A stretch of DNA of 64,000 nt from Escherichia coli (GTDB lineage: Bacteria > Pseudomonadota > Gammaproteobacteria > Enterobacterales > Enterobacteriaceae), in assembly GCF_050320075.1 (NCBI RefSeq), contig NZ_CP190018.1; one strand, given 5' to 3'. The notes under the pieces were generated by a model, which was not told the DNA's origin, did no database searches, and was given only the letters and a program-made list of their open reading frames with translations. A program made the translations under genes and the position numbers. Below, piece by piece: positions 1-13,772 of the stretch (position 1 is the first letter of the stretch; every line of letters begins with the position of its first letter).

Positions 1-575
1 GAATTGATTTTAGAACTCGCAGGATTCGCGCTATTACTGGCCTTGTGTGATGTTGTATTGTTCCCTTCGCCCGCTCCAGAATCTCCCCAGGTGGAGAAGA
101 CTAAAAAAGTCTTCTCTGTCAGCAACTTAAACAGTTACCTATTTAATTTGCTTAGGAGTTCTACCATTGTGATCCGCCCTTAGTAACTGTCACGTTAAGT
201 TACACGGTGAGATGACAGTATAACCTAACGTTGGCGGCAGTTGCACCTCTCACACCGCGATAGCACAACGTGAAGATAAAGCCCATCCTGGCATTGTAAT
301 GTCATCGACAGACTGAACACACGCATTTAAGCCCGATGTGCGGCCTTGTGGCTGCGTAAACAGGTTTATGGTGATATTGGTCCTTGCAAACCATATGCAA
401 GCTCTATCAGCGTTTCAGCCACGCTCCCAACGGGTACACGGTTATCCTGATAAGGTGTGATCTTTCTGACAATCTGATGAAGTCGCTACGCTCCCGCTTG
501 TTGCTGTATCACCAACGGGGCTTTATGGTTTCTATTGTCTATAATAATCTCACAATTCCCCTGCATGAGGTTGAT

Positions 576-782
576 ATGACTGTTAGCTACAAGATTACTT
601 ATGAGCATAGAGACGGTGATCAAATTAGAATGGAAGAGGTTTTATTCCATTCAGAGCATGAACCAACAAAAGATGAAATTCATGATGCAGTAAGAAAAGA
701 TACTGTGAGATTTAATTCTCCATCTAATGGAGTAACGGCTGTTTCAGGGTTTAAAGTGATTTCGGTTGTCCCTGTTCCATGA
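576..782 (+). CDS. Hypothetical small protein (68 aa)
   Basis: ATG at 576 is preceded by GAGG at 567-570. The longer track ORF from 384 starts in compositionally different sequence with no SD. No motif recognised. Confidence 0.4.
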   Translation: MTVSYKITYEHRDGDQIRMEEVLFHSEHEPTKDEIHDAVRKDTVRFNSPSNGVTAVSGFKVISVVPVP

Positions 783-793
783 ATGGTTATAGA

Positions 794-810
794 AGGGGCT
801 GGAAGCCCCT
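794..810. terminator. Hairpin between convergent genes (AGGGGC-tggaa-GCCCCT)
   Basis: Perfect 6 bp stem lying between the stop at 782 and the stop at 816. There is no strong T-run, so it is weak as an intrinsic terminator. Confidence 0.35.
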
Positions 811-815
811 AATTA

Positions 816-1136
816 TTACTTCTTAATATCGCCAGTGCATTGATATTCGATAGTCACAAGTGTTTGCATACAACCAGATGAAGAAGGTTGTGAACATTGA
901 GAAGTGAATCCACCAAAAGGCTCGGCTCCTGAATATCCCCAAGCGGCACAACGCGCTTTGGCTGCATTCATGCCTTGTTGTGGATCTACAACAGGGCTTT
1001 CAAACATACCGTAAGAATAACTCATCCTAACTGTGCCGTCTGATTTGCTTCCACCAGTTGGAACGAGTTGTTTTTTTGTTGCACATCCAGAAATAATCAA
1101 TGTTGAAGCAAGTAACAGCATTAAACTTTTGCGCAT
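816..1136 (-). CDS. Lipoprotein, possibly YecR-like
   Basis: Signal peptide plus lipobox LIISGC near the N-terminus. Four further Cys in the mature part. The GGSKSDGTV / WGY / FGG pattern resembles my recollection of the YecR family. Confidence 0.75.
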   Translation of the reverse strand: MRKSLMLLLASTLIISGCATKKQLVPTGGSKSDGTVRMSYSYGMFESPVVDPQQGMNAAKARCAAWGYSGAEPFGGFTSQCSQPSSSGCMQTLVTIEYQCTGDIKK

Positions 1137-1280
1137 GTAAATAATCCCAAGAGATAATGGTTATGTATTGATTTAAAGCGTTTTTAGATTAATGCATTAA
1201 CTTAGCAAAATTAAGTCTTTTCTGATTGTTTGCAGAGTAAAAATGAGTTGCTTTCGAAATTATTTCGGATGTTTATTGTA

Positions 1281-1448
1281 TTACGGTTTTTCAAACCGTC
1301 TAACTATTGTCGCTATTGAATGGGCAATAATAGCAAGAGGATTCATTTCGTCATTGGAGGCAACAAAAAGTCGGTAACTAATAGCCACAACGAATGCAGC
1401 AATAACGAGAAAGCGGATAGTGCTAAGATGTTTTGAAGATAAATGCAT
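1281..1448 (-). CDS. Small hydrophobic protein (55 aa, MHLSSKHLSTIRFLVIAAFVVAISYRLF...), candidate membrane peptide
   Basis: Below the track cutoff; translated by hand. SD AGGGGG sits 4 nt upstream of the ATG and can pair with CCCCCT in the 5' UTR. One predicted TM segment. Confidence 0.35.
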   Translation of the reverse strand: MHLSSKHLSTIRFLVIAAFVVAISYRLFVASNDEMNPLAIIAHSIATIVRRFEKP

Positions 1449-1524
1449 AACGCCCCCTAAATGAATGTGAGGGGGATTAAATCATGCAAATTTGTTATGT
1501 GCAATACTGGTAATTTATCCTAAT

Positions 1525-1571
1525 AGTCTACTATTCACCTCAATCTACGTCAACCAATATTTGATGTAGAT
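1525..1571 (-). promoter_or_regulatory. Sigma70-like promoter (TTGACG-17-TAGACT on the minus strand) overlapped by a 29 bp palindrome
   Basis: Minus-strand -35 is at 1548-1553 and -10 at 1525-1530. ATCTACGTCAA-N7-TTGATGTAGAT spans 1543-1571 with one mismatch per 11 bp arm. Confidence 0.4.
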
Positions 1572-1788
1572 TTAATTTTCTTTTAAAAACAATATGTTGC
1601 AATTTGTTGGATTTTTGGGTTAGGTTGTTTTTTGAACGTTTCCATCAAGTGTAAAGATACGTTTAGCCTTCATAGTGAGTTCAGTTACTGTCTTTTTATC
1701 TGAAATCGGCGCAAACGTGATCATCGCTTAACGAGAAGATCAGCGCCGTCAGGTCCACGCGGCGACAACTCTGAAATATCAGGAGGCA

Positions 1789-2346
1789 TTACGCTTCCTG
1801 CTCTTTCTTGATACGTTGCACCGTCTGTGTGCTGACACTGAAATCTTTTGCTACGCTCCGAATTGATCCACCATTCGCGAGAGCGGCAGCAATTCCTGCT
1901 CGATCAATTGCTTTTCCATTACCACGTTTTGCTATACGTCCAGCGGCCTTAGCTGCGGCGATCCCTTCACGTTGACGCTCAAGCATCATTTCACGTTCCA
2001 TTTGTGCCACTGCTGCAAGCACTGTGAGCATCATATTCCCTGCGGGAGAGTTCTTCCCTGTCTTAAAGTCTTCTTTATGGAAATGCACAGACACGCCGCG
2101 CTCTGTTAATTGCTCAACCGTTGCCAGTAGGTCGGCTGTATTACGGCAAAGTCGATCAATGCTGTGAACATGCAAAACATCACCTTCCCGCACATAGTTC
2201 ATCATTGCCTCAAACTGTGGGCGCTGGGTATTTTTGCCTGACGCTTTATCTTCAAAGACTTTATCAAGAGTTACTCCAGCTAATTGACGGTCTGTGTTTT
2301 GTTGGACAGTCGATACCCTAATGTATCCAATATTAGCCATTTTCAT
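1789..2346 (-). CDS. Serine recombinase (resolvase/invertase family) with C-terminal HTH
   Basis: N-terminal IGYIRVSTxxQ catalytic-serine motif, DRLCR motif and C-terminal HTH (IRSVAKDFSVSTQTVQRI). The second ATG at 2340 has better SD spacing. Confidence 0.9.
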   Translation of the reverse strand: MKMANIGYIRVSTVQQNTDRQLAGVTLDKVFEDKASGKNTQRPQFEAMMNYVREGDVLHVHSIDRLCRNTADLLATVEQLTERGVSVHFHKEDFKTGKNSPAGNMMLTVLAAVAQMEREMMLERQREGIAAAKAAGRIAKRGNGKAIDRAGIAAALANGGSIRSVAKDFSVSTQTVQRIKKEQEA

Positions 2347-2365
2347 TTTCCTTCTGTGTTGATTT

Positions 2366-2472
2366 GTGTGTAGTGATTATTGATCGTGTTGATTAGGTGT
2401 GTAAAGGACTTTTTTCACTACGAAATTCGAAGGTTTTTAGTGTGGTGATTTAGCCTGCTTTATCACTACACG
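2366..2472. promoter_or_regulatory. Recombinase upstream control region with inverted GTGTAGTGAT / ATCACTACAC arms and further CACTAC-like half sites. Possible res or operator site.
   Basis: 10 bp perfect inverted repeat at 2368-2377 and 2462-2471. Related motifs TTCACTAC and TAGTGTGGTGA lie in between. Confidence 0.3.
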
Positions 2473-3260
2473 TCTTGCATGAGAATCATGTAGTTACATT
2501 TTGGTAAAATTAGCAAGCTATTAAATAGTGTGTTTATTTTGAAAAAATAATTTTTTGTTGCATTAAAGGAAACTTGTTCAATAAATGATAGAACGTTTAT
2601 TGAGCAACAATTTTGCAGTGATGCGCTATATGCCGCATTACATAAGGCTTTGCTGATGATAATGTAAAAGTGAAGAAAGCTAACATTGCTCTTTTAAGCT
2701 ACTTTTCATTGAATTTTTAGTATGGAATTACATAGGGATAAACTATGAATATTCTATGATTTACACGAGATATTCTTGCTGTTTAATTCCGGCTTTGGAG
2801 ATCAGGCATTCGCAAGAATACGCTAACGCGTTGCCTGAAAAGCCATTGCACATAATAGAGGTGAGCGTATAGCGAACTATCAATGTGATCATTGCACGAA
2901 TGATAATGAGTGGATATAGATTCTATATATCGTTAGATTGTAGTTTGATAGTTAATGTGTAATGTAGATTGTATGAGCGTATAGCGAATGTTAGTTAGAT
3001 CAACAACAAACTAACCTTTAAATCTCTTTTATCTTCTCATAGATATGGCTATGCGTAGCAACCGAAGGTTAGCCAATCATCTCTATGCAGCCGTAAGGCT
3101 GTTTTGCATGTAATAGTTGTTTGTTGTTGTTAGACAGTTACCAATTTATAGATCAGAGATAGATGTGAGCGTTGAGCGATACACTAATCATAACAACATC
3201 TTCTTACTTTTTAGTTAGTTGTTAGTAGGTTATTGTTATGCGCGCTATTAGCGCATGTAT

Positions 3261-3371
3261 AAAGGTATCATTTTTATCTAAAGGGCTTTAGACATTTTTG
3301 ATACCTTTTTCATCTCTAAAAAAGTGTAATTTTTATCTAAAGGGGCTTTAGACATTTTTTACACCTTTTTC
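3261..3371. repeat. Two adjacent near-palindromes of about 48 bp, arranged as a 59 bp direct repeat. Each is centred on TCTAAAG-GG(G)-CTTTAGA.
   Basis: Palindrome cores at 3277-3292 and 3336-3352. Outer arms are AAAGGTATC/GATACCTTT and AAAGTGTAA/TTACACCTTT. Extra TCTAAAG half sites occur near 3411 and 3488. Confidence 0.7.
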
Positions 3372-3515
3372 TGTGCAAGACACTTACCAGTGTGCACAAT
3401 ACTTATGCTTTTCTAAAGCCGGGAATTTTTAAGTTTGATTGATCAATTGTTAACTTTAAAAGTTACTTTTAACAATCACTTAGACGATCTAAAGCCGCAA
3501 TTAACATAATATAAG

Positions 3516-3545
3516 TTGACATGCAAGCACTTTTTACCGTATAGT
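3516..3545 (+). promoter_or_regulatory. Near-consensus sigma70 promoter (TTGACA-18-TATAGT)
   Basis: Hexamers read directly at 3516-3521 and 3540-3545. AT-rich sequence lies upstream. Confidence 0.55.
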
Positions 3546-3551
3546 GCGGGT

Positions 3552-3605
3552 TTCCTACCTACCCAGGAAATGAGTTCCTACCTACCCAGGAAATGAGTTC
3601 CTACA
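3552..3605 (+). repeat. Tandem 23 bp repeat, about 2.3 copies, each unit a hairpin or operator (TTCCT-N8-AGGAA)
   Basis: TTCCTACCTACCCAGGAAATGAG at 3552-3574 is repeated exactly at 3575-3597, with a partial third copy at 3598-3605. The repeat starts at the predicted +1 of the 3516 promoter. Confidence 0.9.
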
Positions 3606-4556
3606 ATACTATAATTAAACTACAATTAAACTATCTTTTATAAATTCTTTTATCTTTTAAAGAATAATTATAGGGATACCCGTTAGGGAGTCTTCGACTA
3701 TCCCTTAATCTATTGGCATTCGCCAGAACCTTGCACAAGTTAGACTGATGCTTGTCATAACAGATAGTTTTTGTTTTTTGTTAGTAGTTAGCTGATCTAT
3801 GTTCGCTTTCCGCTCACAACGAATATGTAATCTACTATGTGCAAATAGCCTACGGCTTGCGTATGGCTAATAGTCTTGCGCTGTGCGCAGAACGATAATT
3901 AACTAACTACCATCTAACGATTGAAATTTACTTGTGCAATAACCTGAGCATAAGCGAATGGTTGTTAGTGTCTATGCGCTGTGCGCTTCAATAGTTCCAT
4001 TGATGAGGCTTACGCCAATCTAACGATCATCAATCTATTTAAGAGAAAATCTATTGTGCAATACTCTGACGAGTGCAATAACCTTGTGTGCTACGCGTTA
4101 GCGATGTTAGCACATAGACACAGACAACAACCAACAACAAACAAAAAAGAAAGAATGGTTTTAGTAGTTGAAGGTTAAATAAGTTTCTACCGCTTAAATC
4201 AAGCCGTAGGCGAGCTAAACGTATATAAGGTAGGGAAACACTTAGCGGTAATAGATTAGCTCGTTATAGAGCTTCTGAGGAGCTTTACAGGTATTTTATA
4301 AGATGTCTGAAATCAGAGTTTATCTATCCACCATCTTTCCATCATCTGATAAATCAAAAATAAGCCCCTTAAATAAGCCTCTGACGAGATAAACAACCTC
4401 TACATAAGGGAATGTATTGTTTTTATCAAAACCCCCGTCAGAGTGCGATTGAGAGCGTTTTAGACAACAGGGAAGAATTGTACCAGAGTAGGCAGCACAA
4501 AAAGCTAAGAAAAATTATAAGAAATTGAAAATGATCAAGTTTTTTATAAAAGAGGG

Positions 4557-4585
4557 TTGACAAAGCCGCCGTTATGTAGTATTGT
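4557..4585 (+). promoter_or_regulatory. Sigma70 promoter of the early operon (TTGACA-17-TATTGT) with an A/T-rich UP-like region
   Basis: Hexamers at 4557-4562 and 4580-4585. The first gene with a strong SD follows about 110 nt later. Confidence 0.6.
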
Positions 4586-4701
4586 AAGTAGGGAGGGGAG
4601 AAACATCTCTCTCCATCTAAATAATCAAATCACAGAACACTGCACTTTGAGCCGTCAGGCTGCAAGGTGTGTTTTTCTTTTATCTAAATAAGGAGTTTTT
4701 T

Positions 4702-4884
4702 ATGAAATGGTATACACCGGAACACGTCGTAGAGGCATTTAAAAAAGGTGAGCTAACACGACATCAAGTAAGGATGAACAGGAACACAGCGCGGCGCTGT
4801 GGTTATCCAGAGCGTGAAAAATGCTTTGACGATGCACTAAAAATTATTGATGAACTGCGTAAGGCAGAAGCAGAGAAAGAATAA
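4702..4884 (+). CDS. Hypothetical protein (60 aa)
   Basis: ATG at 4702 is preceded by AAGGAG. The track ORF start at 4669 is an upstream alternative codon without an SD. Confidence 0.6.
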   Translation: MKWYTPEHVVEAFKKGELTRHQVRMNRNTARRCGYPEREKCFDDALKIIDELRKAEAEKE

Positions 4885-4907
4885 TAACAGGAGAAGGAGA
4901 AAACCAA

Positions 4908-5084
4908 ATGAATATTAATTTTGATTCTGCAACTTATAACGCGTTGTTAAATCGTGCAAAGGCAGAAGGGAAATCAATTCCAAAACTTGTTAATGAATTA
5001 CTAATTACAGTCCTTACAAAGGAGGAACTAAATGAACCAAAACACCAAAACAATTGCCGAAGCAAAAGCGCAATGCCTCAATAA
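4908..5084 (+). CDS. Ribbon-helix-helix (CopG/Arc-like) DNA-binding protein (58 aa)
   Basis: Hand-translated: MNINFDSATYNALLNRAKAEGKSIPKLVNELL..., a beta-strand/helix/helix pattern. AGGAGAAGGAG lies upstream. The 3' end overlaps the next gene. Confidence 0.5.
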   Translation: MNINFDSATYNALLNRAKAEGKSIPKLVNELLITVLTKEELNEPKHQNNCRSKSAMPQ

Positions 5085-5697
5085 GAAAGATAGTAAACAA
5101 ACATATGTAGTAGTTGAACAATGGCTGAAGATGTTTAAAAAGTGGTTCTCACCGTCAGGTAAGGAATACACCGCGACACTTCCAGCCGTTGAAATCTACA
5201 GTTACGTAGCTGGGTTCAATGAACAAGGGCAAGAATGTTACGCCAATCAAAAAACATTAGCTAATATTGGAATGGTTAGTGATCGTCAGGTGCGTAATAT
5301 TATAAATATGTTTATTGATATGGGTGTTCTTTCTGTAGAGGCACGGGACGGGCAAACATCACTCTATAAAGCATTACCCTTTACAGATGCACACATCACA
5401 CCACCGGAAGACGTAAAAACCTCTGTAAACGTAGAACAGCCTGCACCTGAAACACAGGAACCGTTAGAAGCGACACACTCTATTGAGCAGGAAACACAGG
5501 CAGAAATCACGGAACAATCTGATCTTTTTACATGGCTTATTTCCATAGACAGCCAAAAGCCTATGCAAGAAGAAACAGAAAATTTTATAAAACGTGCACT
5601 GACCTCGAAGAGGATAATTCTTGAAGATGATGCTTTTAATGCACTGATGATAGCCCTGAGAAAAGAAAGTGAAATCTATGACTCAATACCATTTTAA
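5032..5697 (+). CDS. Winged-helix protein resembling RepA_N/DnaD-type replication initiators, with an acidic C-terminal half
   Basis: Strong SD AAGGAGG. The segment LPAVEIYSYVAGF...ECYANQKTLANIGMVSDRQVRNIINMFIDMGVLSVEARDGQTSLY fits the initiator wHTH pattern as I recall it. Confidence 0.7.
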   Translation: MNQNTKTIAEAKAQCLNKKDSKQTYVVVEQWLKMFKKWFSPSGKEYTATLPAVEIYSYVAGFNEQGQECYANQKTLANIGMVSDRQVRNIINMFIDMGVLSVEARDGQTSLYKALPFTDAHITPPEDVKTSVNVEQPAPETQEPLEATHSIEQETQAEITEQSDLFTWLISIDSQKPMQEETENFIKRALTSKRIILEDDAFNALMIALRKESEIYDSIPF

Positions 5698-5709
5698 GGA
5701 GAATAAAAA

Positions 5710-5967
5710 ATGAAATACAACCTGACATTAAACAAACGAACATTCGAAATTACAGAAAGCGGCTACACACTGGCAAAACAGCTTGCTGATAGCAATTATG
5801 AGCTACCCGCGATTATCAGCTTTCAGGAGTTACCTCATAGTAAAGAACACACACAGCACTGGTTAAATCACCTGAGCCATTTTGGGGTAATTAAGTATGA
5901 GGCTGTGAATAGTCAGACGTTCCGTTTGCTTGAGATAAGCCCTTTCGAATTGTGGGTGGCGCTGTGA
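5710..5967 (+). CDS. Hypothetical protein (85 aa), possibly winged-helix
   Basis: ORF with SD, lying in the operon. Confidence 0.65.
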   Translation: MKYNLTLNKRTFEITESGYTLAKQLADSNYELPAIISFQELPHSKEHTQHWLNHLSHFGVIKYEAVNSQTFRLLEISPFELWVAL

Positions 5968-6170
5968 CCATATTCGATAGCGAATTTTCACAAGAAACCT
6001 TTCTGCAATATTTACGGGAAAGAACGGGAATGATTCTGTTTGATTCTGAGTTTTCCGGTGTGGTAGGTGAGCAATTTTTATATGCTCTTCTCGATAGCCT
6101 AAGTAAACAAGGATTATTGCAGTATACCAAAACTCATATGAAAGCATTCAGAATCGACTCTGTAGCTTAA
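5964..6170 (+). CDS. Hypothetical protein (about 68 aa) with an internal tandem (I/L)FDSEFS repeat
   Basis: GTG at 5964 overlaps the upstream stop as GTGA, suggesting translational coupling. The track ORF begins at 5952. Confidence 0.55.
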   Translation: MTIFDSEFSQETFLQYLRERTGMILFDSEFSGVVGEQFLYALLDSLSKQGLLQYTKTHMKAFRIDSVA

Positions 6171-6206
6171 AACAAACAACTATCAAACATCTTGAAGGGT
6201 GAAACA

Positions 6207-6347
6207 ATGGAAAGCTTAATATTTTTCTTAGTATTTATGATCGCTTCCTTTTTTAACACTGCAACAAGAAAAACAAAACGAAGGGGAAGCAATGAGCAAG
6301 AAAAAAGGCAAGAAAAACGTAATAACAACTATTGGCGAAGCATGTGA
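6207..6347 (+). CDS. Possible small membrane peptide (46 aa, MESLIFFLVFMIASFF... with a basic tail)
   Basis: Hand-translated. Weak SD AAGGG. Overlaps the next gene out of frame. Confidence 0.2.
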   Translation: MESLIFFLVFMIASFFNTATRKTKRRGSNEQEKRQEKRNNNYWRSM

Positions 6348-6672
6348 TCAGTATGCGTTAAACAATCCTCGCAAATATAATTATGAGCATGATGCACAAC
6401 CAGGCGAGGAATTGATCTTTATACTTGAAGAACCAAGCCCAGAATTAACAGACGAAGAATTATCACTCATTCAAAGTATGGACGGTGTTTACTTTAATCC
6501 GCGCCCACGCAAAACAACGGTTATAGATTCCAGTCTTCTGAAAAGATGGCAGTGTTTGGGTTTTCAGGATATGCACCACTTTAGGGGGTATATGGCTCTT
6601 AACAGTCTGCAATATGCAGGGGTGAGAGAAACCGAATTACTTCTGCTTGATAAAATAAAAATCGACGATTAA
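6292..6672 (+). CDS. Hypothetical protein (126 aa), basic N-terminus
   Basis: ORF with SD (AAGGGGA). No motif recognised. Confidence 0.7.
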   Translation: MSKKKGKKNVITTIGEACDQYALNNPRKYNYEHDAQPGEELIFILEEPSPELTDEELSLIQSMDGVYFNPRPRKTTVIDSSLLKRWQCLGFQDMHHFRGYMALNSLQYAGVRETELLLLDKIKIDD

Positions 6673-6713
6673 CAGCGTTTGCTGAATATAACCCTTAACA
6701 AAAGGAAAATAAA

Positions 6714-6935
6714 ATGATTAACAAAGCAATTTTAGAGACAACCACTTTTCACGATCTTAAACTTCTTTCTGAATGCTTCATAAGCCTGATTGAACGTGCA
6801 CAGGAAGAAAACGATCTCGGTTTACTCGATGATATTATAGACAACATTGCAACTTATAAAATCCCGCTCACTATTGCTATGAAGAAAGCTCGTGAAGCAC
6901 AACAACAATTAGAACAATCAGAGGAAGTGGCATAA
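6714..6935 (+). CDS. Hypothetical acidic helical protein (73 aa)
   Basis: ORF with SD. The stop overlaps the next start as TAATG. Confidence 0.7.
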   Translation: MINKAILETTTFHDLKLLSECFISLIERAQEENDLGLLDDIIDNIATYKIPLTIAMKKAREAQQQLEQSEEVA

Positions 6936-7243
6936 TGAGCGAAGTACACAACGTAACTATTGAAATGATGGATCTGGTTATTGATTTACAGAAAGCAGTA
7001 AACGCGGCTCTGACTTTTCCAAGCGAGCTAACCATCACACAGGCGGTTATTAATCTGGAATCGACGCGGGAAGCACTGCAACTACTTATTGCAGCGTGCG
7101 AAGAGAGCGAAGGTGCACAGATTGAAGCTGATGACCTTTCTAATCTGATCATCGTCATTCATGACACCACTGAAATCATGAAAGAAGCGGTAGCAGATCT
7201 GCAACCCCTCATTAATGAATTAATCGATAAGGCTAACAACTAA
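6935..7243 (+). CDS. Hypothetical strongly acidic helical protein (102 aa)
   Basis: By my count about 19 D/E against 4 K/R. TAATG overlaps at both ends. Confidence 0.7.
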   Translation: MSEVHNVTIEMMDLVIDLQKAVNAALTFPSELTITQAVINLESTREALQLLIAACEESEGAQIEADDLSNLIIVIHDTTEIMKEAVADLQPLINELIDKANN

Positions 7244-7452
7244 TGTCAAAAACTAAACGTGTGCGCCTTCTGGCGCTCACAGAAGAAGGGAAAGCGGGTA
7301 ATTGTTTCACAGTAGGTAAAGTGTATACCGGCTTACTCGACACTTACACCCGCCTGATGCACGTAACCGATGATAACGGTAACGATCAAACAATCGTTTT
7401 AGATGGTAATTGCGTATTTGGTGAGTGGGAACTGACAACCGAAAAAAGTTGA
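7243..7452 (+). CDS. Hypothetical protein (69 aa)
   Basis: Translationally coupled ORF and the last gene of the early operon. Confidence 0.7.
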   Translation: MSKTKRVRLLALTEEGKAGNCFTVGKVYTGLLDTYTRLMHVTDDNGNDQTIVLDGNCVFGEWELTTEKS

Positions 7453-7471
7453 AAATAATTGCATTTACCTA

Positions 7472-7500
7472 TTGACTTTTACTAACAGAAATGTTAGAAT
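7472..7500 (+). promoter_or_regulatory. Sigma70-like promoter (TTGACT-17-TAGAAT)
   Basis: Hexamers at 7472-7477 and 7495-7500, 20 nt after the early-operon stop. Confidence 0.5.
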
Positions 7501-7506
7501 AATAAA

Positions 7507-7749
7507 TGTTGGGTTTGGAATCGAAAATAGGTGTTAGCTGGCGTTAATCCTTCTCCCGATTCTAATCCTACACGAAAGCGGGGTAGACCTCAAGGGGTCG
7601 CGCCCTATCTAACCTATCCCGCTTTCCCTTTACAGTGATTTTTTAGAAATTGTTTCCCTCGTTAATAGTTTCATTTTATTTTCCTTATTGCTTTATCAAA
7701 ATTGTGTCTTAAGAATGCAGGGGCTACGGATTTGGCCCCTCATCTTTTT
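7507..7749 (+). ncRNA. Candidate structured leader or ncRNA 1
   Basis: No ORF longer than 20 codons. A 13 bp stem (7574-7586 with 7614-7626) encloses the AGGG-gtcgcg-CCCT hairpin. Ends at the terminator-like hairpin at 7719-7749. Confidence 0.3.
7719..7749 (+). terminator. Intrinsic terminator-like hairpin (AGGGGC...GCCCCT followed by T5)
   Basis: 6 bp GC stem at 7719-7724 and 7735-7740, with a T-run at 7745-7749. Confidence 0.5.
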
Positions 7750-7869
7750 AACCAACTGCGAAGCATGAAACACTTTCTAAAAACACTGTTTACAGTGTCT
7801 ATAAACCCCGTATAAACAAATAACGGTGTATATCTGTTTCTTGACAACAGTTTTCTACTAAGCTTAAAG

Positions 7870-8290
7870 CTGAATATGTTTTTGTTTGTTGGTGTTTATT
7901 AAGGTGCCAATCTTAGAACGCGAAAGCGTGGATGATCCCCGAAATCATCTCGGCACCGCCTCCTATTAAAATGAGAATCCAAAAGGTTTGAAAGTTAATA
8001 GGTGATTCCTGAAAGTCTGATCGATGCATCCACATTGTGAAAGACAGCGATTAGCCGTCGCACGAATAACAGGTTTATAGATTCCTCTCCAAAGGGGGCG
8101 ACCTCCTAAGCGCCTACTCCCTGTAAGCCTGTTATTCACCCCTCAAGGGTATATAACAATAAGCAATCTTATTCTTATATGTCCTCCTCTTTAAGTTCAT
8201 ATAAACTGCGATTTAGTAACACTCTATAACATCCTTCAAATGTTGTATTCATAAAGCCGGAAGCTTTCCCCTTCCGGTTTTATTTTTATC
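7870..8290 (+). ncRNA. Candidate long structured RNA 2 (about 420 nt). The 5' end is uncertain.
   Basis: A possible promoter is TTGACA at 7841-7846 with a weak -10 TTAAAG. A three-way junction is formed by GGTGCC 7903-7908 with GGCACC 7952-7957, the GNRA hairpin ACGC-GAAA-GCGT at 7918-7929, and GATGAT/ATCATC at 7931-7949. An 8 bp stem pairs 7962-7969 with 7995-8002, and a 10 bp stem pairs 8064-8073 with 8128-8137. A strong terminator sits at 8253-8290. No ORF longer than 20 codons. Confidence 0.4.
8253..8290 (+). terminator. Intrinsic terminator (CCGGAAG-ctttccc-CTTCCGG followed by a T-rich tail)
   Basis: 7 bp GC-rich stem extended by A-U/G-U pairs, then TTTTATTTTTAT. It lies about 40 nt before the first head-module gene. 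Confidence 0.7.
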
Positions 8291-8330
8291 AGCACTAAAC
8301 AAGACTGTTAGGAATAAAGGTAAAGCAATA

Positions 8331-8546
8331 ATGCAAAATCTCATTCTAAAGAATGGTAACGAAGAATTGGTTATCACTGATGAAACATTCAATGCTACGG
8401 CTTATATGCTGGGGATCACTCCCACAGAATTGAAAAAACATTGTGATAAGCTTTTTAAGTCTGCTGATGAACAGAAACCTACTATGCAGGATCTGATTAA
8501 AGCAAAAGCAGAACAAATCAAACAATCCAAAAAAGGAAACTATTAA
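8331..8546 (+). CDS. Hypothetical protein (71 aa), first gene of the head module
   Basis: ORF with SD. No motif recognised. Confidence 0.7.
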   Translation: MQNLILKNGNEELVITDETFNATAYMLGITPTELKKHCDKLFKSADEQKPTMQDLIKAKAEQIKQSKKGNY

Positions 8547-8548
8547 TT

Positions 8549-8920
8549 ATGGCTATTATTAATATGAGCGATCTGTTTCCAGTTCGCAAATCATTTACCG
8601 ATATCGTTTCATATGCAACTGATGAGTTCGGTTGTGTGCAATCTTTTACCGTTGATCTGGCGGTTGATGTTGAATGCGGCGATCTGATTACCAGTGACGG
8701 CGCTGAATATGTAAGCGGCGGCGATGTTCTTGTAGTTGTGTCTGATGCGGTATCCGCTGGCGACGCTAAAACCGTTAACGTGCTGCGTAGCAATGCCGGA
8801 CTGGTTTGCATCAAGTCCGATGCTCTGAATGTTGAAGGCGCTGTGAAAGAAGCTGCTATTGCTGCCCTGGCTGCAAAAGGTTTCCAGATGGCTGGTTTTA
8901 ACACTGTATTCACATCTTAA
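8549..8920 (+). CDS. Head decoration / capsid-cement-like protein (gpD / DUF2190-like)
   Basis: 123 aa, Gly/Ala/Val-rich beta-type protein immediately upstream of the capsid gene. The size, position and G..V......G.....V pattern are typical of decoration proteins. The assignment rests on pattern, not on an alignment. Confidence 0.6.
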   Translation: MAIINMSDLFPVRKSFTDIVSYATDEFGCVQSFTVDLAVDVECGDLITSDGAEYVSGGDVLVVVSDAVSAGDAKTVNVLRSNAGLVCIKSDALNVEGAVKEAAIAALAAKGFQMAGFNTVFTS

Positions 8921-8938
8921 TATAAAGGAATAAAAATA

Positions 8939-9967
8939 ATGATTATTGGTAATGAATCCGTCGATCTGGCTCCGCTGTTTAGTCTGCACGACTCTCGCAA
9001 CTTCCTGTTAACTTCTCTCGACTTTACTGATCCGGTAGGTGTGAGTTCTCATAAAGTGGCTGTTAGCCAACTGGTGGAAACTAACGAATCTCTGTTCAAC
9101 AAAGAAACCTCTCGTTTCTCTTCTGAACATAACGTGACTAAACGTGAACAGGGTAAAGAATTTTTAGTAGAGATCCCCTACTTCCTGCGTGAAGATATGA
9201 TTAAGCCGCAAGACGTGCAAGGCAAACGTAAACCAGGCGCTACCGTTGAAGAAACTCTGACAGATATCTACGCGGAATATGTTGCTAAGCACCACATTGC
9301 TTTCCAGCGTACTAAAGAAAGCGTGCTGGCTGCTTCCCTGTTCTCTGGTCGCACTTACACCCCTAAAACTGATGATGTGCTGATCCAGTGGGGCGATCTG
9401 TTTAGTGTTGTTCCGATGACTGCAACCATCGACGCATCAAGCACCACGCCTTCTATGGTGTTCCAGCAATTCGATCAGATGCATACAGACGTTATTACTA
9501 AAGCACAAAGCCAGGCGGCTGCTGTAGAACGTATCGTTGTATTCTGTAAACCTGCTGCTTTCAACGCTATCCGTTACAGTGCTGGCATGGTTAACGCGTT
9601 CCAGTATGCAAGCCCTACCGATGACGCAAACATCGTTTATAGCGTGCGCTCCCTGCTGCCAGGTGTGACTACCTTCACTATTCCTGGGACTAACATCGAT
9701 ATCGTTAAAGTTACTGATCCGCTGCTGCTGGCTCATATGACTTCTGATGCGGTTGCTGTTCCGAAGTTCGCTAAAGGCTCTAACGTCTATCAGAACATTT
9801 TCAGCGCTCCTTCTTCAACGTTCGACCTGCTGAATTCTGGCGCGGCTGAATATTACAGCTATGCGTTTAGCCCAGCACGTAACGACGCTGTAAACGTAGT
9901 TACTGAGAATAGCCAGATGGTTGTAAACCACGGCGTAGGCTTCACTGTACAGATCACAGTAGCGTAA
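8939..9967 (+). CDS. Major capsid protein, lambda gpE-like family
   Basis: 342 aa, close to the size I recall for gpE (about 341 aa). The IKPQDVQGKRKPG segment resembles the conserved P.D.QG.R..G region of the capsid E family. It follows a decoration-like gene as in lambda D-E. Confidence 0.75.
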   Translation: MIIGNESVDLAPLFSLHDSRNFLLTSLDFTDPVGVSSHKVAVSQLVETNESLFNKETSRFSSEHNVTKREQGKEFLVEIPYFLREDMIKPQDVQGKRKPGATVEETLTDIYAEYVAKHHIAFQRTKESVLAASLFSGRTYTPKTDDVLIQWGDLFSVVPMTATIDASSTTPSMVFQQFDQMHTDVITKAQSQAAAVERIVVFCKPAAFNAIRYSAGMVNAFQYASPTDDANIVYSVRSLLPGVTTFTIPGTNIDIVKVTDPLLLAHMTSDAVAVPKFAKGSNVYQNIFSAPSSTFDLLNSGAAEYYSYAFSPARNDAVNVVTENSQMVVNHGVGFTVQITVA

Positions 9968-10017
9968 TAAAGCGTTAATAGTCGTTTCCTGTGCGACTGG
10001 AAATAAAACAGGCAATA

Positions 10018-10081
10018 AGGGCAAAAGGGATTATTAAACCTGTAGCGCAAATACAGTAAACAATCTCTTTTGCCCTTTTTT
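10018..10081 (+). terminator. Long-stem terminator-like structure after the capsid gene
   Basis: AGGGCAAAAG at 10018-10027 pairs with CTTTTGCCCT at 10067-10076, followed by T5. An inner hairpin lies at 10040-10056. Confidence 0.45.
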
Positions 10082-10120
10082 CGTTTATACCGTCTATTAA
10101 AATATTGTGAGAGAAAAATC

Positions 10121-10312
10121 ATGAGCGAACAAAACAACAATCCAGTTGAGATCCTGAAAGCTGTTTCCACCTTACCGGAAGATATTCTGAATATCTCTCA
10201 AGTGTGTAAGTTTTTAGGGATCTCTAATACTGCTGTACGTCAAAGAATCTTCACTACTGGCTGCTCAGCTATGGAAGCAGTGCAATACTACGTAACAAAA
10301 CAAAACAAATAA
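10121..10312 (+). CDS. Small HTH DNA-binding protein (63 aa). Could be an excisionase/AlpA-like or small-terminase-like recognition protein.
   Basis: The ISQVCKFLGISNTAVRQRI helix-turn-helix. The track ORF start at 10070 lies inside the terminator, so the ATG at 10121 is preferred. Confidence 0.6.
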   Translation: MSEQNNNPVEILKAVSTLPEDILNISQVCKFLGISNTAVRQRIFTTGCSAMEAVQYYVTKQNK

Positions 10313-10330
10313 AAGGTAAAGGAAAATATT

Positions 10331-12172
10331 ATGGATTTAAACATCTCAACCTTAACAAACAAGGTTGTATTTAAAGTTGATTTTGCATCATTACAGAAAG
10401 CAAGGGACGCAGGGAAGAAATTTCAGAAAGAAATGGAAAACCTAACCAATCCAACATTGAAAGGGAAGAAGGCTAAACGAGCTATAGACGAGGCTCATGA
10501 TCTGGTAAAGGCTCGTAAAGCTGCACAGGCTAAAACTGATGCCAAAGCGTCAGACAAGCAAGCTCAAACCGATAAGAAGAACGCTGATAAGGTGGCAAAG
10601 GCAGAAGCTAAAGCGAAGGCTAAAGCCGCTATAGCTGCCGATAAACAGATCCGCGCTAAAGCGACAATAGCAGAGAAAGCAGAGATTAAGCGCCAGCAAG
10701 CTTTCAGACAGCTTGAAGGGATTAAGAAAGGGCGTATGGGCGACGGTATGGACTCCGCCCAATACTACAAAACGTTGCAATACATCAAAGCACAAACGGC
10801 AGCGTATGAGAAAGGCGCTATTAGTCAGGCTAAGATGAATCACCTGATCCGTGATCGTATCACGTTAGAACGCCGTGCGGCTGCTGTAAAAGCTCGCCAG
10901 GTGGCGGCTGATGGCGGTAAATATCCACATATGGCTAAACAGCTTAAAGGCGGTCATATAGGCGGTGGTGTAGGTGCAATGGTGGGCGGTGCCGCTCTCA
11001 CTGCTGCCACTCTCGGCGGTGCTGCGATATTCAATACCGTAACCGATCAGGCAAGCAAGATCACAGACACTAACCGCAAGGCAAAGGCTGTCAACGTAAA
11101 CACTAACGCCCTGTTAGCACTTAATCAGTACGGCTTAGAACACGGTGTCGATAGTTCCGTAGACCAACGTCAAGACAACCTTAAAGACGTTCAAGAGCGT
11201 TTAGGTGAATCCGTAGGGAATACCAAATGGGACGCTAAGAAAGGTCGCTGGGCTGGCGGTAATGGTGCCGTCGATAACATCCTTAATAAATATGGTTGGA
11301 GTCCTGAACAGATTAAAGGTTTCCAGACTGATCCATTAGGTTTCCTGGGCGCTGTAGTGAAAGAAGGAGAACGCCGTGGACTCTCTGATCAGGAGCAGGG
11401 TCACATCCTTGAAGACCTTGGAAATGATTTACAATATTTCCGTGGTGCTTTCAGTCGTAACGGTGAAGAGCTAAATAAAACCATCGTTAAGATGCAAAAA
11501 GCCAATGCCACCTATGCGCAAGCGGATCTTGACGCTGCTGAACGTCTGCAAGCTGTACAGGCTAATATGAATATGGCCTGGGAAGGTAGTAAGAAAGCTA
11601 TCATGACGGGATTCGGTGAAGAGTTCGACGCTCAGGCTGGTGAAGAGTGGGCGCAAATGTTGAAAGATCTCAATCCTCTGTTTAAAGAACTTGGAAGCTC
11701 AACGGCTGAAATGATGAGCGCCTTTGCTGGTGCTGTATCGTGGCTTACTGCTGCATACCAGAATATAAATCCAGAGAACAAACATGAAAACCTTGATTCG
11801 TCCGGTATGTATTATAAGGATTCGTTTGTAGGCGGCATGGTTGATTGGGGTCGTAGTGCTTTAGGCTTATCGCCTATCCCTGGCACGGAAGACAAGCCAA
11901 CGACTGGCGGAACTGCAATTCAGAACTATTCAAGCCCGTCCGATAACGTGCAATCCCTGAAAGAGAACGTTAGCCGTGATCTGAACACTACCCCATCTAT
12001 GACGTATGCGCCAAGCATTGTCGTAAACGTGCCAGAAAGTAAGGTTGATGTGAATATCGCTCCTGATGGTAGTCAGCTTGGATCATACCTCGATTACAAA
12101 GTGGGAAGTATCCAACAAGATTTTGAACGTAGTTTCACGTTGGCGGCTCTGTCTGGGCAAGCACCAAGTTAA
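10331..12172 (+). CDS. Large structural protein, tape-measure-like (Lys/Ala coiled coil plus glycine-zipper hydrophobic segment)
   Basis: 613 aa. The N-terminal KAEAKAKAKAA-type repeats and GGHIGGGVGAMVGGAALTAATLGGAAIF are typical of tape-measure or DNA-pilot proteins. Confidence 0.6.
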   Translation: MDLNISTLTNKVVFKVDFASLQKARDAGKKFQKEMENLTNPTLKGKKAKRAIDEAHDLVKARKAAQAKTDAKASDKQAQTDKKNADKVAKAEAKAKAKAAIAADKQIRAKATIAEKAEIKRQQAFRQLEGIKKGRMGDGMDSAQYYKTLQYIKAQTAAYEKGAISQAKMNHLIRDRITLERRAAAVKARQVAADGGKYPHMAKQLKGGHIGGGVGAMVGGAALTAATLGGAAIFNTVTDQASKITDTNRKAKAVNVNTNALLALNQYGLEHGVDSSVDQRQDNLKDVQERLGESVGNTKWDAKKGRWAGGNGAVDNILNKYGWSPEQIKGFQTDPLGFLGAVVKEGERRGLSDQEQGHILEDLGNDLQYFRGAFSRNGEELNKTIVKMQKANATYAQADLDAAERLQAVQANMNMAWEGSKKAIMTGFGEEFDAQAGEEWAQMLKDLNPLFKELGSSTAEMMSAFAGAVSWLTAAYQNINPENKHENLDSSGMYYKDSFVGGMVDWGRSALGLSPIPGTEDKPTTGGTAIQNYSSPSDNVQSLKENVSRDLNTTPSMTYAPSIVVNVPESKVDVNIAPDGSQLGSYLDYKVGSIQQDFERSFTLAALSGQAPS

Positions 12173-12230
12173 TGATAAAGAGAATGTTTAATCACCATTT
12201 AAAACACTCTTATAAGGAATTAAGCATATA

Positions 12231-12257
12231 AGAGGCTCCCATTACAAGGAAGCCTCT
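12231..12257. terminator. Hairpin between convergent genes (AGAGGCT...AGCCTCT)
   Basis: 7 bp stem followed by TTATT. It sits between the stop at 12172 and the integrase stop at 12280. Confidence 0.45.
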
Positions 12258-12279
12258 TTATTGCGCCTATGGCGTTGTT

Positions 12280-13455: not shown

Positions 13456-13496
13456 CTTACTGATTTAGTGTATGATGGTGTTTTTGAGGTGCTCCA

Positions 13497-13772
13497 GTGG
13501 CTTCTGTTTCTATCAGCTGTCCCTCCTGTTCAGCTACTGACGGGGTGGTGCGTAACGGCAAAAGCACCGCCGGACATCAGCGCTATCTCTGCTCTCACTG
13601 CCGTAAAACATGGCAACTGCAGTTCACTTACACCGCTTCTCAACCCGGTACGCACCAGAAAATCATTGATATGGCCATGAATGGCGTTGGATGCCGGGCA
13701 ACCGCCCGCATTATGGGCGTTGGCCTCAACACGATTTTCCGCCATTTAAAAAACTCAGGCCGCAGTCGGTAA
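13497..13772 (+). CDS. insA: IS1 InsA
   Basis: 91 aa, [40 protein letters not shown]..., recognised. Confidence 0.95.

Follow-up and report, generated by a model that had tools for sequence, protein, structure and literature searches.

A candidate helicase-less replication and control operon in a satellite-like integrative island of Escherichia coli

Positions 4557–7452 of the window, the 64,000-nt stretch of Escherichia coli DNA analysed here, probably represent the early operon, for replication and control, of an integrative island of 13.4 kb with satellite-like behaviour toward virulent Stephanstirmvirinae (phi92/phAPEC8-like phages; Table 1). The best reading of its sequence is a helicase-less replication and control module from a so far undescribed satellite family. 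In the proposed mechanism, g3 would act as the initiator: its RepA_N-like winged helix would bind the semi-palindromic iterons at 3552–3597, its C-terminal half would bring in the replisome, and its exchangeable C-domain would make contact with one more factor, of host or helper origin. The small serine recombinase encoded upstream would resolve multimers. The operon is proposed to be held low by leader termination and/or autoregulation by the ribbon-helix-helix (RHH) protein g2, and to be turned on upon helper infection.

Table 1 Features of the island, in window coordinates.
Feature	Position	Strand	Basis or description
tRNA-Gly 3′ end (attL core, island left edge)	61–78	+	Identical to L001 6001–6018, within annotated tRNA-Gly
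Small serine recombinase (resolvase/invertase type)	1789–2346	-	phrog_125 DNA invertase, E 1.9e-62
Two tandem 23-nt iterons	3552–3597	+	TTCCTACCTACCCAGGAAATGAG; each with semi-palindrome AGGAA-ATGAG-TTCC
ORF-free AT-rich stretch, iterons to promoter	3598–4556	+	About 1 kb; 82–97% conserved between islands
Early promoter, sigma-70-like	4557–4585	+	TTGACA, 17 nt, TATTGT; 10/12
Leader hairpin, terminator-like or attenuator-like	4642–4682	+	GCACUUUGAGCC-GUCA-GGCUGCAAGGUGU, then U-run
g1, 60 aa, basic	4702–4884	+	77–89% aa identity in relatives; third-position bias
g2, 58 aa, RHH DNA-binding protein	4908–5084	+	Profile match to AvtR
g3, 221 aa, proposed iteron-binding replication initiator	5032–5697	+	
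g4, 85 aa, family-core orphan	5710–5967	+	46% aa identity in L004–L007; third-position bias
g5, 68 aa, accessory orphan	5964–6170	+	GTG start in GTGA overlap; third-position bias
Ultra-conserved non-coding spacer 5′ of g7	6171–6291	+	2–3 substitutions/121 nt vs about 15% in flanks
g7, 126 aa, family-core orphan	6292–6672	+	48–54% aa identity in L004–L007
g8, 73 aa, acidic helical orphan	6714–6935	+	Third-position bias; 57% identity, L006 only
g9, 102 aa, acidic helical orphan	6935–7243	+	Same-size slot, diverged sequence in relatives; third-position bias
g10, 69 aa	7243–7452	+	phrog_27862, E 1.9e-14; third-position bias
Late/structural module, same island	8331–12172	+	phrog_29 and phrog_16051
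Tyrosine integrase	12280–13440	-	phrog_1

The 5′ part of the tRNA-Gly at the left edge of the island is absent in this strain, and ARAGORN calls no tRNA-Gly at 61–78. At the opposite end, the 5′ end of the integrase gene has been removed by an IS1 element, recognised by its end sequence, that starts at 13441 (391 aa here, 406 aa in locus L001). With its integrase truncated and its tRNA broken, this island copy may no longer be mobile. In other strains, the same island is found at tRNA-Gly and related islands at tRNA-Thr. Of 5426 complete E. coli genomes, 744 match some of the region 4400–7600 and 60 match at least 80% of it, so its presence here is not due to chance. The conserved module comprises the recombinase, ORF-free DNA and g1-g2-g3, is >80% conserved at the nucleotide level across islands, and is found in Erwinia too. 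The ORF-free stretch, which has no match in Rfam or in phages, is shared by islands whose structural genes can no longer be matched by blastn.

The late module encodes 71-aa and 123-aa proteins, a major capsid protein (8939–9967), a 63-aa protein and a tape-measure protein (10331–12172). Over its full length, the capsid protein shares ~25% identity with its counterparts in Stephanstirmvirinae and, at a similar level, in Pseudomonas and Klebsiella myophages, and the tape-measure protein is ~30% identical to tape-measure proteins almost exclusively from Stephanstirmvirinae. These are lytic coliphages of about 150 kb. Phage homologues of g2, the g3 winged helix and g10 also occur almost only in this group, those of g10 including a few records listed under Klebsiella, Acinetobacter, Campylobacter, Shigella, Pseudomonas and Dompiswa hosts. 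The satellite context raised in the initial annotation is thus borne out by capsid and tape-measure homology mainly or only to Stephanstirmvirinae. Likewise, family searches across the whole island (Pfam, PHROG, NCBIfam and PADLOC for the operon, PHROG only for the other island ORFs) detected no helicase, primase or polymerase, in agreement with the helicase-less replication module described there. Like PICIs, cfPICIs and P4-like satellites (SatelliteFinder, PMC10085698), the island falls in the 7–15 kb size range and has an integrase at an att site and a rightward early operon followed by morphogenesis genes; like the island, cfPICIs code for a capsid protein. In contrast to PICIs and P4, it has a tape-measure gene, lacks AlpA, Stl, primase, Rep helicase, TerS, portal, protease, Psu, Sid and Delta, and has as candidate helpers virulent 150-kb myophages rather than temperate lambdoid or P2-like phages.

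It is unlikely that the element is instead an autonomous plasmid-like or defective-prophage replicon, whose operon would serve plasmid maintenance (Rep, RHH copy-number or partition regulator, resolvase) and whose structural genes would be decaying. Relatives do occur as element-sized contigs, one 13,944 bp long whose ends overlap by k-1, others circularly permuted, which suggests plasmid-like autonomy over strict helper dependence. In addition, the resolvase-type recombinase adjoins the iterons, RHH proteins include the well-known plasmid regulators ParG and CopG, the Foldseek matches include the centromere binders TubR and the pNOB8 protein, and the integrase is truncated both here and in the circular relatives. 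However, 850 of the 851 matching places are chromosomal and one is on a plasmid, and in most genomes the islands occupy tRNA att sites and retain an intact integrase. Relatives keep unbroken ORFs for the capsid and tape-measure proteins, the island has no partition ATPase, and its very recent DNA exchange with virulent phages, described below, also argues against autonomy.

Turning to the operon itself, the initial annotation held that a promoter at 4557 drives ten coupled genes. The promoter is present and its −35 hexamer is invariant in an alignment of six diverged islands, but an invariant terminator-like hairpin intervenes before g1. This hairpin, with a 12–13-bp stem, is shaped like an intrinsic terminator. 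Six loci preserve all 13 pairs while differing in the loops; because the stem never varies, the hairpin has no covariation support. In 6/6 loci, it ends 8 nt before the Shine–Dalgarno sequence of g1 and 20 nt before its ATG. Control of an early operon by premature termination in its leader is known from P4. The small same-strand ORFs with Shine–Dalgarno sequences and the overlaps (GTGA at 5964, TAATG at 6935 and 7243) are present in the sequence as described. Relative to relatives that are 80–88% identical, substitutions concentrate at third codon positions in g1, g3, g4, g5, g7, g8, g9 and g10 (by codon position, 13/6/37 in g7 and 5/4/22 in g10), so these genes are coding.

The assignment of g2 as an RHH protein stands: the profile of its family matches the RHH regulator AvtR (4HV0, E 3.5e-6) and, weakly, ParG and HP0222. 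Its sequence is 91% identical at the amino acid level to protein bas60_0101 of phage PaulScherrer. Although it overlaps g3 by 53 nt and has no PGAP annotation, g2 is a real gene and is found, unannotated, in loci L004, L006 and L008. The trio g1-g2-g3 recurs in every relative. The most conserved gene of the family is g1, which stands first in the trio also where the replication protein differs; an alternative module is headed by a distant 78-aa g1 homologue. Searches of Pfam, PHROG, NCBIfam and the PDB gave no family or structure match for g1.

The third member of the trio, g3, consists of a winged helix (about residues 30–120), a disordered acidic linker (128–161), a three-helix C-domain (162–212) and a tip ending in YDSIPF. 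The AF2 model likewise shows the winged helix with confidence, leaves the linker and the tip disordered, and places a small helical domain between them. The earlier label of a RepA_N-like initiator is upheld by structure, in that the best match of the winged helix is the N-domain of RepA from the Vibrio satellite PLE (4RO3), and by the co-variation with iterons described below, but not by a sequence match to Pfam RepA_N (PF06970). In this respect, g3 differs from the RepA_N plasmid initiators of pSK41 and pTZ2162, in whose family an acidic disordered linker with an ..IPF tip is undescribed. PHROG families of replication initiators match g3 and, more strongly, the same domains in a phage chimera (phrog_270, 6.8e-6 and 4.7e-17), and for g3 itself HTH_36 falls below its cut-off (22.3 vs 25 bits). 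Weak profile matches of the winged helix (PHROG "replication initiation O-like", HTH_36, DnaD_N) also liken g3 to lambda O-type and DnaD-like initiators, whose two-part design, with an N-domain on repeats and a C-part that recruits the loader, it would share. Unlike in the lambda O type, the iterons lie outside the gene and a P-like or DnaC-like partner gene is missing, and the g3 matches are below curated cut-offs.

The iterons at 3552–3597, for which 0 chance matches are expected, are proposed as the candidate g3 binding site and origin core. In seven loci, iteron type co-varies with the winged-helix type of g3 at the same map position, in keeping with an initiator role for g3: type A is paired with AGGAAATGAGTTCC, type B with CACAGAAAACTGTTA and type X with CCCCTATCAAnnnTGATA. 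All three are semi-palindromes about an A-rich spacer, as are RepA_N iterons (PMC7145576).

An operator role would also fit the location of the iterons, ~1 kb upstream of the operon and directly 3′ of a strong promoter-like site (TTGACA-18-TATAGT, 3516–3545). By extension, g3 could be a repressor or activator, with the repeats as operators, the operon as a regulatory or cargo cassette, any replication passive, and the phage chimera a homing endonuclease that shares a common DNA-binding domain. PGAP labels g3 alleles "transcriptional regulator" or "LexA family", and T5orf172 is a typical domain of homing endonucleases in phages (PMC8263062). Several observations make this account improbable. 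The promoter-like site is not conserved in L004 and L006, whose iterons are; the alleles labelled "LexA family" lack a peptidase domain and have the same C-domain and tip as g3; and the PHROG matches are to replication initiators. In circular relatives, g1-like and RHH-like genes accompany a 495-aa Walker-A, helicase-like protein in the position of g3, which marks this as a replication slot. Finally, repressors are not known to make use of a disordered acidic linker capped by a conserved SSB-tail-like tip.

The initiator reading is also consistent with this tip. The C-domain of g3 is variable, and its [IL]PF C-terminus resembles the SSB tail DDDIPF, a documented motif (SSB-Ct, PMC5872125). The ending, or a close variant, is found in 27/36 g3 homologues on at least three unrelated C-domains, Erwinia included, and some homologues have an additional internal DLDDIPF; those without it are fragments, one fusion and three phage nucleases. 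The class-1 tip present here, YDSIPF, is less acidic than DDDIPF. Since the island has no replisome enzymes of its own, g3 would have to recruit them, and its acidic tip may do so by mimicking the SSB tail to attract SSB-binding proteins such as PriA, DnaG or the pol III chi subunit. Host SSB is the proposed model for this mimicry because phage muut, which encodes a primase/helicase and a DNA polymerase, has no protein with an SSB-like tail in its whole genome. The plasmid RK2 initiator TrfA binds the beta clamp via a QLSLF motif. Similarly, g3 is proposed to be an enzymatically inactive initiator in which a short linear motif pulls in a host replisome component, but the motif copied would be the C-terminal tip of SSB, not one that binds the clamp.

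In a chimeric gene of some Justusliebigvirus phages, two island-type winged helices, 91–100% identical in nucleotide sequence to island alleles, are joined to a T5orf172/GIY-YIG-type endonuclease. In muut_154, nt 1–369 are 97.6–100% identical to type-X island alleles, nt 372–632 reach 97.7% identity to type-A alleles, and nt 633–999 have no E. coli match. The C-terminus matches the phrog_681 endonuclease (2.2e-18), Pfam MUG113 (22.5 bits, cut-off 22.3) and, weakly, T5orf172. Such recent exchange indicates that the island and virulent phages replicate in the same cells. Because the chimeric gene is present in about 6 of >100 related phage records and the island alleles in hundreds of genomes, transfer is taken to have run from island to phage. 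This apparent copying of the g3 DNA-binding head into a phage nuclease gene suggests an arms race like that between cholera bacteria and ICP1, whose nuclease Odn combines a satellite-type DNA-binding domain with a T5orf172-type nuclease and cuts the PLE origin (PMC8263062). By analogy, the chimera is predicted to cut the island iterons, and the RHH copy in other phages may serve the same counter-attack.

Helper blocking is common in satellites, and PLE replication itself interferes with ICP1 (PMC7145576). The operon could thus be mainly an anti-phage weapon, with g3 using captured phage DNA-binding domains to bind phage DNA and poison replication by attracting or titrating SSB-binding enzymes, and island replication secondary. 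Winged helices are indeed common to island and phage early genes, and a mimic of the SSB tail could draw clients away from SSB. This explanation is highly improbable given that the cognate iterons lie in the islands: none of the 50,697 phage records contains the 3552–3597 iterons, and type-A and type-X iterons number 0 in the whole muut genome. The island-to-phage direction of transfer also opposes it, as does PADLOC, which returned two weak sub-threshold matches on the operon and no defence model above noise.

The proposed replication system most resembles PLE in several respects. Both would have an initiator-only replication module, lacking helicase and primase, in a satellite whose virulent phage has its own replisome, a RepA-type N-domain fold, semi-palindromic iterons in a long non-coding region (PMC7145576, PMC8263062), and a DNA-binding domain swapped with its iterons between elements as a module. 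The phage-borne chimera parallels Odn, but contains two tandem island-derived domains at 91–100% nucleotide identity, compared with one at 42% amino acid identity. The island genes have no sequence homology to PLE genes. A tyrosine integrase acting at a tRNA gene takes the place of a large serine integrase, capsid and tape-measure proteins are encoded by the island itself, and an SSB-tail-like tip is unreported for PLE RepA.

The six small proteins g4, g5 and g7–g10 are true orphans, and helper interference, anti-defence or late-gene control are guesses at their roles. No nin-region or other characterised prophage family, the outcome named in the initial annotation as contrary to its reading, is found among the operon genes (Pfam, PHROG, NCBIfam, PADLOC). 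These searches gave no match for g4; g5, which is absent from L004–L008, has as its sole match a weak PADLOC one to BrxA (E 6e-4). For g7, just 19 homologue clusters exist among 1.84e9 protein representatives, and its AF2 model has a pLDDT of 43. The homologues of g10 are small conserved Phapecoctavirus proteins (43.5% amino acid identity to phAPEC8-like phages). The remaining ORF (6207–6347, 46 aa), one of the ten genes originally counted, has no third-position bias and is broken in relatives by a 1-nt deletion (L011 and L012) or a stop codon (L009 and L013), so nine genes remain. Most of this ORF lies within the conserved spacer 6171–6291. The RNA fold of the spacer is not significant (z −1.2), and the spacer could pair with the g7 Shine–Dalgarno sequence.

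In the E. coli chromosome of the window, which is 100% identical in strain YZLc1-3, the early operon lies within a 13.4-kb island (61-13,440) at tRNA-Gly. It is read here as an operon for replication and control that works through iterons and without a helicase, in a so far undescribed family of E. coli satellites of virulent Stephanstirmvirinae phages, an interpretation that we consider fairly probable. In other strains, the same island has tRNA-Gly on one side and the ETT2 type III secretion remnant on the other. Searches of Pfam, PHROG and NCBIfam with the operon, and of PHROG with the rest of the island, detected no helicase, primase or polymerase, and a scan of 1-14000 against Rfam gave zero matches. 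In this strain, only the last 18 nt of tRNA-Gly are left (61-78), and the IS1 end removes the integrase start together with attR (13441-13520 and 1-78 were examined); based on these two losses, this island copy looks immobilized. Bases 1-24,000 have a higher AT content than the remainder of the window. The region 13691-64000 is presumably ordinary E. coli DNA, as judged by position and ORF sizes on the K-12 map, with ETT2 remnants and yqeG/yqeF followed by ptsP, lgt, thyA, recC, ptrA, recB, recD and argA. Three tRNA-Met genes are predicted by ARAGORN in the rest of the window.

Features of the island, from left to right, in window coordinates
Feature	Coordinates	Strand	Position or remark
YecR-like lipoprotein gene			Leftmost in island
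Small serine recombinase	1789-2346	minus	
ORF-free DNA, 2.2 kb			Between serine recombinase and operon
Operon	4557-7452		Right of the 2.2-kb ORF-free DNA
ORF-free DNA, about 0.9 kb			Between operon and late genes
Two small genes			After the 0.9-kb ORF-free DNA, before capsid gene
Major capsid protein	8939-9967		
One small gene			Between capsid and tape-measure genes
Tape-measure protein	10331-12172		
Tyrosine integrase			Rightmost in island; 5' end cut by IS1 at 13441

The initial annotation described this operon as ten tightly coupled small genes, an observation that is real once corrected to nine genes and a putative leader terminator. The sequence contains the claimed overlaps, GTGA at 5964 and TAATG at 6935 and at 7243, along with the Shine-Dalgarno sequences. 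The promoter-like site at 4557 scores 10/12, and its TTGACA hexamer is unchanged in six diverged islands. Between this site and the first gene, g1, an invariant leader hairpin of 12-13 bp followed by a U-run (4642-4682) has the predicted shape of an intrinsic terminator; because the stem never varies, covariation cannot confirm it. Relative to relatives that are 80-88% identical, substitutions gather at the third codon positions of g1, g3, g4, g5, g7, g8, g9 and g10, which indicates that these genes are under protein-level selection. The sixth slot is different. The 46-aa ORF proposed there (6207-6347) is frameshifted in two relatives, stopped in two more and free of third-position bias, and the stretch 6171-6291 has just 2-3 changes over 121 nt, far below the divergence of the coding DNA around it. 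On these grounds, 6171-6291 is conserved non-coding DNA rather than a gene. Its GCUUCCUUUUU segment could pair with the Shine-Dalgarno region of g7, and its overall fold is not significant. Directly after g10, a further promoter-like site, of the extended -10 kind (TTGACT, 17 nt, TAGAAT), precedes about 140 nt of strongly structured sequence closed by a U-run (MFE -50.4 kcal/mol, z -3.98; 0/200 shuffles as stable). This region, 7472-7650, which separates the early module from the late one, may encode a small RNA, and it has no Rfam match.

The proposed initiator, g3 (221 aa, 5032-5697, plus strand), belongs to a modular family. At least four types of N-terminal winged helix (A, B, C and X) are joined through a conserved junction, ALPFTDAHITPP, and an acidic linker to at least three unrelated C-terminal domains. 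The AF2 model of g3 (mean pLDDT 70) shows a confident winged helix at residues ~30-120, disorder at 128-161 and again at the tip (217-221), and between these disordered parts a three-helix domain. The protein does not match PF06970 (RepA_N) at E<=1, and its only Pfam match, to HTH_36, scores 22.3 bits, below the cut-off of 25. The initial proposal of a RepA_N-like initiator and an RHH regulator in the reduced replication module of a satellite is largely borne out.

Repeats of the kind expected for a RepA_N initiator, namely putatively cognate semi-palindromic iterons near the gene, accompany g3. In every island, a short semi-palindromic repeat array lies just upstream of a conserved 1-kb non-coding stretch, and across seven loci the repeat sequence changes with the winged-helix type while its position stays the same. 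Islands with the type A winged helix carry the repeat AGGAAATGAGTTCC, present in the window at 3552-3597 as two copies of TTCCTACCTACCCAGGAAATGAG and found also in the related islands L004 and L006. Type B islands (L005 and L007) carry 4-5 copies of CACAGAAAACTGTTA, and the type X island (L014) carries 4 copies of CCCCTATCAAnnnTGATA. The iterons consist of inverted half-sites flanking an A-rich spacer, the same form as that described for RepA_N iterons (PMC7145576). This co-variation is the strongest computational evidence concerning g3 binding, and it is on this basis that g3 is predicted to bind the repeats. It is possible that g3 is instead purely a transcription factor. The idea that the g3 alleles annotated as 'LexA family' are true LexA-like repressors, was rejected, as the peptidase domain is absent and the C-terminal domain and tip are the same as in other alleles. 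Iterons placed within the gene, in the style of lambda O, were also sought, and no repeat family was found in g3.

The ORF-free DNA to the left of the iterons has features of its own. Within 2347-3550, two direct repeats of 59-60 nt, each a long AT-rich palindrome, occupy 3258-3371, and the motif TGAGCG-N4-AGCGAA recurs at 2862, 2974 and 3166. A strong promoter-like site (11/12) at 3516-3545 adjoins the iterons. The segment 2782-3547 is common to the window and the circular relatives described below and is missing in L004. An invertible promoter segment, bounded by inverted repeats beside the invertase gene, was considered and set aside, as the inverted matches in a self-comparison are short and marginal (E >= 0.005) and L004 lacks the left half.

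At its extreme C-terminus, behind the disordered linker, g3 carries acidic residues followed by I/L-P-F. An acidic ending with [IL]PF or a close variant is found in 27/36 g3 homologues (..YDSIPF, ..EEDDFDIPF, ..YEDFDIPF, ..FDDFDIPF, ..LEFEIPF, ..DDFDIPF and ..EDFDIPF); the exceptions are fragments, one fusion and three phage proteins. The homologue from Erwinia typographi ends in ..EEDFDSIPF. The C-terminal hexapeptide of SSB, DDDIPF, is the docking site of many replication and repair proteins (PMC5872125). Judged from the sequence and the predicted model, the g3 tail matches this hexapeptide, and the logic of a disordered linker plus tip would be the same as that of SSB. We tentatively propose that this SSB-tail mimic serves as the recruiting device. 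How RepA_N-type initiators, which have neither helicase nor primase activity, load the replisome is an open question (PMC7145576), to which an SSB-tail mimic tethered to iterons would, if true, be a concrete answer. A phage SSB was rejected as the model for the tip because no ORF of phage muut, discussed below, encodes such a tail; the muut genome also lacks type-A and type-X iterons.

The gene preceding g3, g2 (58 aa, 4908-5084), overlaps it by 53 nt and is left unannotated by PGAP, and it is conserved in relatives and in one phage. The g2-family profile reaches the RHH protein AvtR (4HV0) at E 3.5e-6, in agreement with the RHH regulator initially named here; ParG and HP0222 follow at about 0.2. 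In addition, a 52-aa homologue from a relative matches a PHROG 'Arc-like repressor' family (E 0.0018), and Pfam gives only FitA-like_RHH at E 0.19. g2 is probably the operon regulator. Its coding DNA at 4908-5031 shows zero substitutions in 124 nt relative to L004 and L006, whereas divergence in the same comparison is about 10-20% for g1 and about 9% for the g3 winged helix. A recent sweep or exchange might explain this invariance, as might a second role of the DNA or RNA. A near-identical copy of g2 is present in phage PaulScherrer.

The remaining proteins are largely orphans. g1 is a basic, conserved protein of 60 aa with no detectable relatives found outside Escherichia. Both g4 and g7 are orphans of the family core, and g5, g8, g9 and g10 are accessory. 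Among 1.84 billion representative proteins, g7 has 19 homologue clusters; AF2 models it too poorly (pLDDT 43) for a fold search. Searches of Pfam, PHROG, NCBIfam and PADLOC with all ten ORFs returned nothing useful except for g2, g3 and g10, and PDB sequence searches with g1, g3, g4, g10 and the g7 family profile gave no matches. New phage-interference functions may lie with the orphans g1, g4 and g7-g10, and it is possible that the operon serves defense first, a reading to be weighed against these PADLOC results.

Part of 4400-7600 is matched by 744/5426 complete E. coli genomes, nearly always on the chromosome, so that the family is detectable in up to about 14% of them. Annotated relatives sit at tRNA-Gly and tRNA-Thr (thrW) and share a common plan: serine recombinase, ORF-free DNA, g1, a small RHH gene, the g3 slot and small genes, then ORF-free DNA, capsid, tape measure, a Dit-like baseplate protein and integrase. 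The left module, from recombinase to g3, retains 80-97% nucleotide identity among islands whose structural genes blastn no longer matches. It also occurs in two islands that have neither capsid nor tape-measure genes: L008 of E. coli EC17GD31, 7.6 kb long and inserted at the thiM TPP riboswitch, and L027, from Erwinia typographi. In a second set of relatives, g4-g10 and the flanking non-coding DNA are 80-88% identical to the window, but the place of g1-g3 is taken by distant g1 and RHH homologues and a 495-aa Walker A protein with a C-terminal helix-turn-helix. Because these relatives share g4-g10 but carry the Walker A module instead, the g1-RHH-g3 slot is, by this sequence comparison, a putative exchangeable replication module. 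The second set consists of element-sized contigs; the 30-nt terminal overlap of one (13,944 bp; L011, SRR4054721) and the circular permutation of the others point to circular molecules. In L009 and L011-L013, the integrase is truncated or missing and the serine recombinase is absent, and these may be plasmid-like forms of the island family. That the island itself is an autonomous plasmid-like element is a possible reading, to be considered together with these forms and with the nearly always chromosomal location of the matches. One circular relative carries an Imm_superinfect gene. At the capsid slot, the window protein (342 aa) and that of the thrW islands (343 aa; L004 14206-15237) occupy the same position; tblastn at E<=1e-3 finds zero similarity between the window and L004 capsid proteins, and the adjacent tape-measure proteins are 25-30% identical.

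Compared with known satellites, the island is distinct. PICIs and cfPICIs share only an integrase and a capsid protein with it; AlpA/Stl, primase and Rep helicase, TerS and, as expected of cfPICIs, portal, protease and head-tail connectors are absent by Pfam, PHROG and NCBIfam for the operon and PHROG elsewhere. The Alpha primase-helicase, Psu/Sid/Delta and Ogr-type activator of P4-like satellites are likewise unmatched. PLE, the satellite of the Vibrio/ICP1 system, has a large serine integrase in place of the tyrosine integrase of this E. coli island; no sequence homology to PLE genes was found, and the N-terminal domain of g3 may resemble PLE RepA, at the fold level only. No described satellite of the Stephanstirmvirinae was found in the literature outside subscription-only papers.

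The links to these phages begin with the structural genes. Over its full length, the capsid protein shares ~25% identity with capsids of Stephanstirmvirinae and, besides these, with those of Pseudomonas and Klebsiella myophages, and the C-terminal two-thirds of the tape measure is ~30% identical to tape measures almost exclusively of Stephanstirmvirinae. An IMG/VR scan with the capsid protein found prophage-type regions of isolate genomes only and is uninformative on packaging. At the DNA level, phages PaulScherrer and VEcB match 4894-5060 (g2) at 95.8% identity, and phages muut, inny, Mt1B1_P17 and BI-EHEC match the g3 winged helix (5127-5387) at 90.8%. Phapecoctavirus phages hold g10 homologues (43.5% identical).

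The muut gene concerned, muut_154 (332 aa), is 75% identical to g3 across 114 residues. Its family, present in only a handful of related phage records, combines tandem winged helices (X+A or B+A) with a C-terminal domain; a 173-aa fragment has a type C winged helix and the start of A. Nucleotides 1-369 of muut_154 match type-X g3 alleles of E. coli islands at 97.6-100% identity, and nucleotides 372-632 match type-A alleles at up to 97.7%; for the nuclease part, no E. coli match was found. This C-terminus matches phrog_681 'endonuclease' (E 2.2e-18) and Pfam MUG113 (22.5 bits, cut-off 22.3), with T5orf172 below its cut-off (15.3 bits, 20). A DNA-binding domain homologous to that of the proposed satellite initiator is joined to a nuclease domain of the T5orf172/GIY-YIG superfamily. 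Phage ICP1 cleaves the PLE origin with Odn, in which a T5orf172 nuclease is fused to a DNA-binding domain copied from PLE RepA (PMC8263062), and muut_154, known here from its sequence, has the same architecture and would follow the same logic. By analogy, the most economical reading is that phages stole the island DNA-binding domains to destroy the predicted island origin. Such theft would imply that the island harms or exploits those phages, and the Odn-like nuclease would be a counter-measure. The fuller scenario, which we regard as conceivable but still doubtful, is of widespread undescribed E. coli satellites of virulent Stephanstirmvirinae whose helicase-less initiator offers a host SSB-tail mimic at sequence-specific iterons, in a PLE/ICP1-style arms race. 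In it, phages would steal not only the RHH gene but also the DNA-binding domains of the initiators, from which they would assemble 'double-headed' nucleases directed at the origin. If true, E. coli, the most tractable host, would gain its own counterpart of the Vibrio PLE-ICP1 system and a satellite of the virulent phi92/phAPEC8-like phages used in phage therapy; an origin-directed nuclease would have evolved independently by domain theft, with visibly recent DNA exchange (up to 100% nucleotide identity). Island carriage could also account for strain-to-strain variation in susceptibility to these phages. Phage muut encodes its own primase/helicase and DNA polymerase. Finally, muut, as a candidate helper, carries a tRNA cluster (8243-11279, L030) that includes tRNA-Gly and tRNA-Thr, the two types of host tRNA gene used by the islands, an overlap that may be coincidence.
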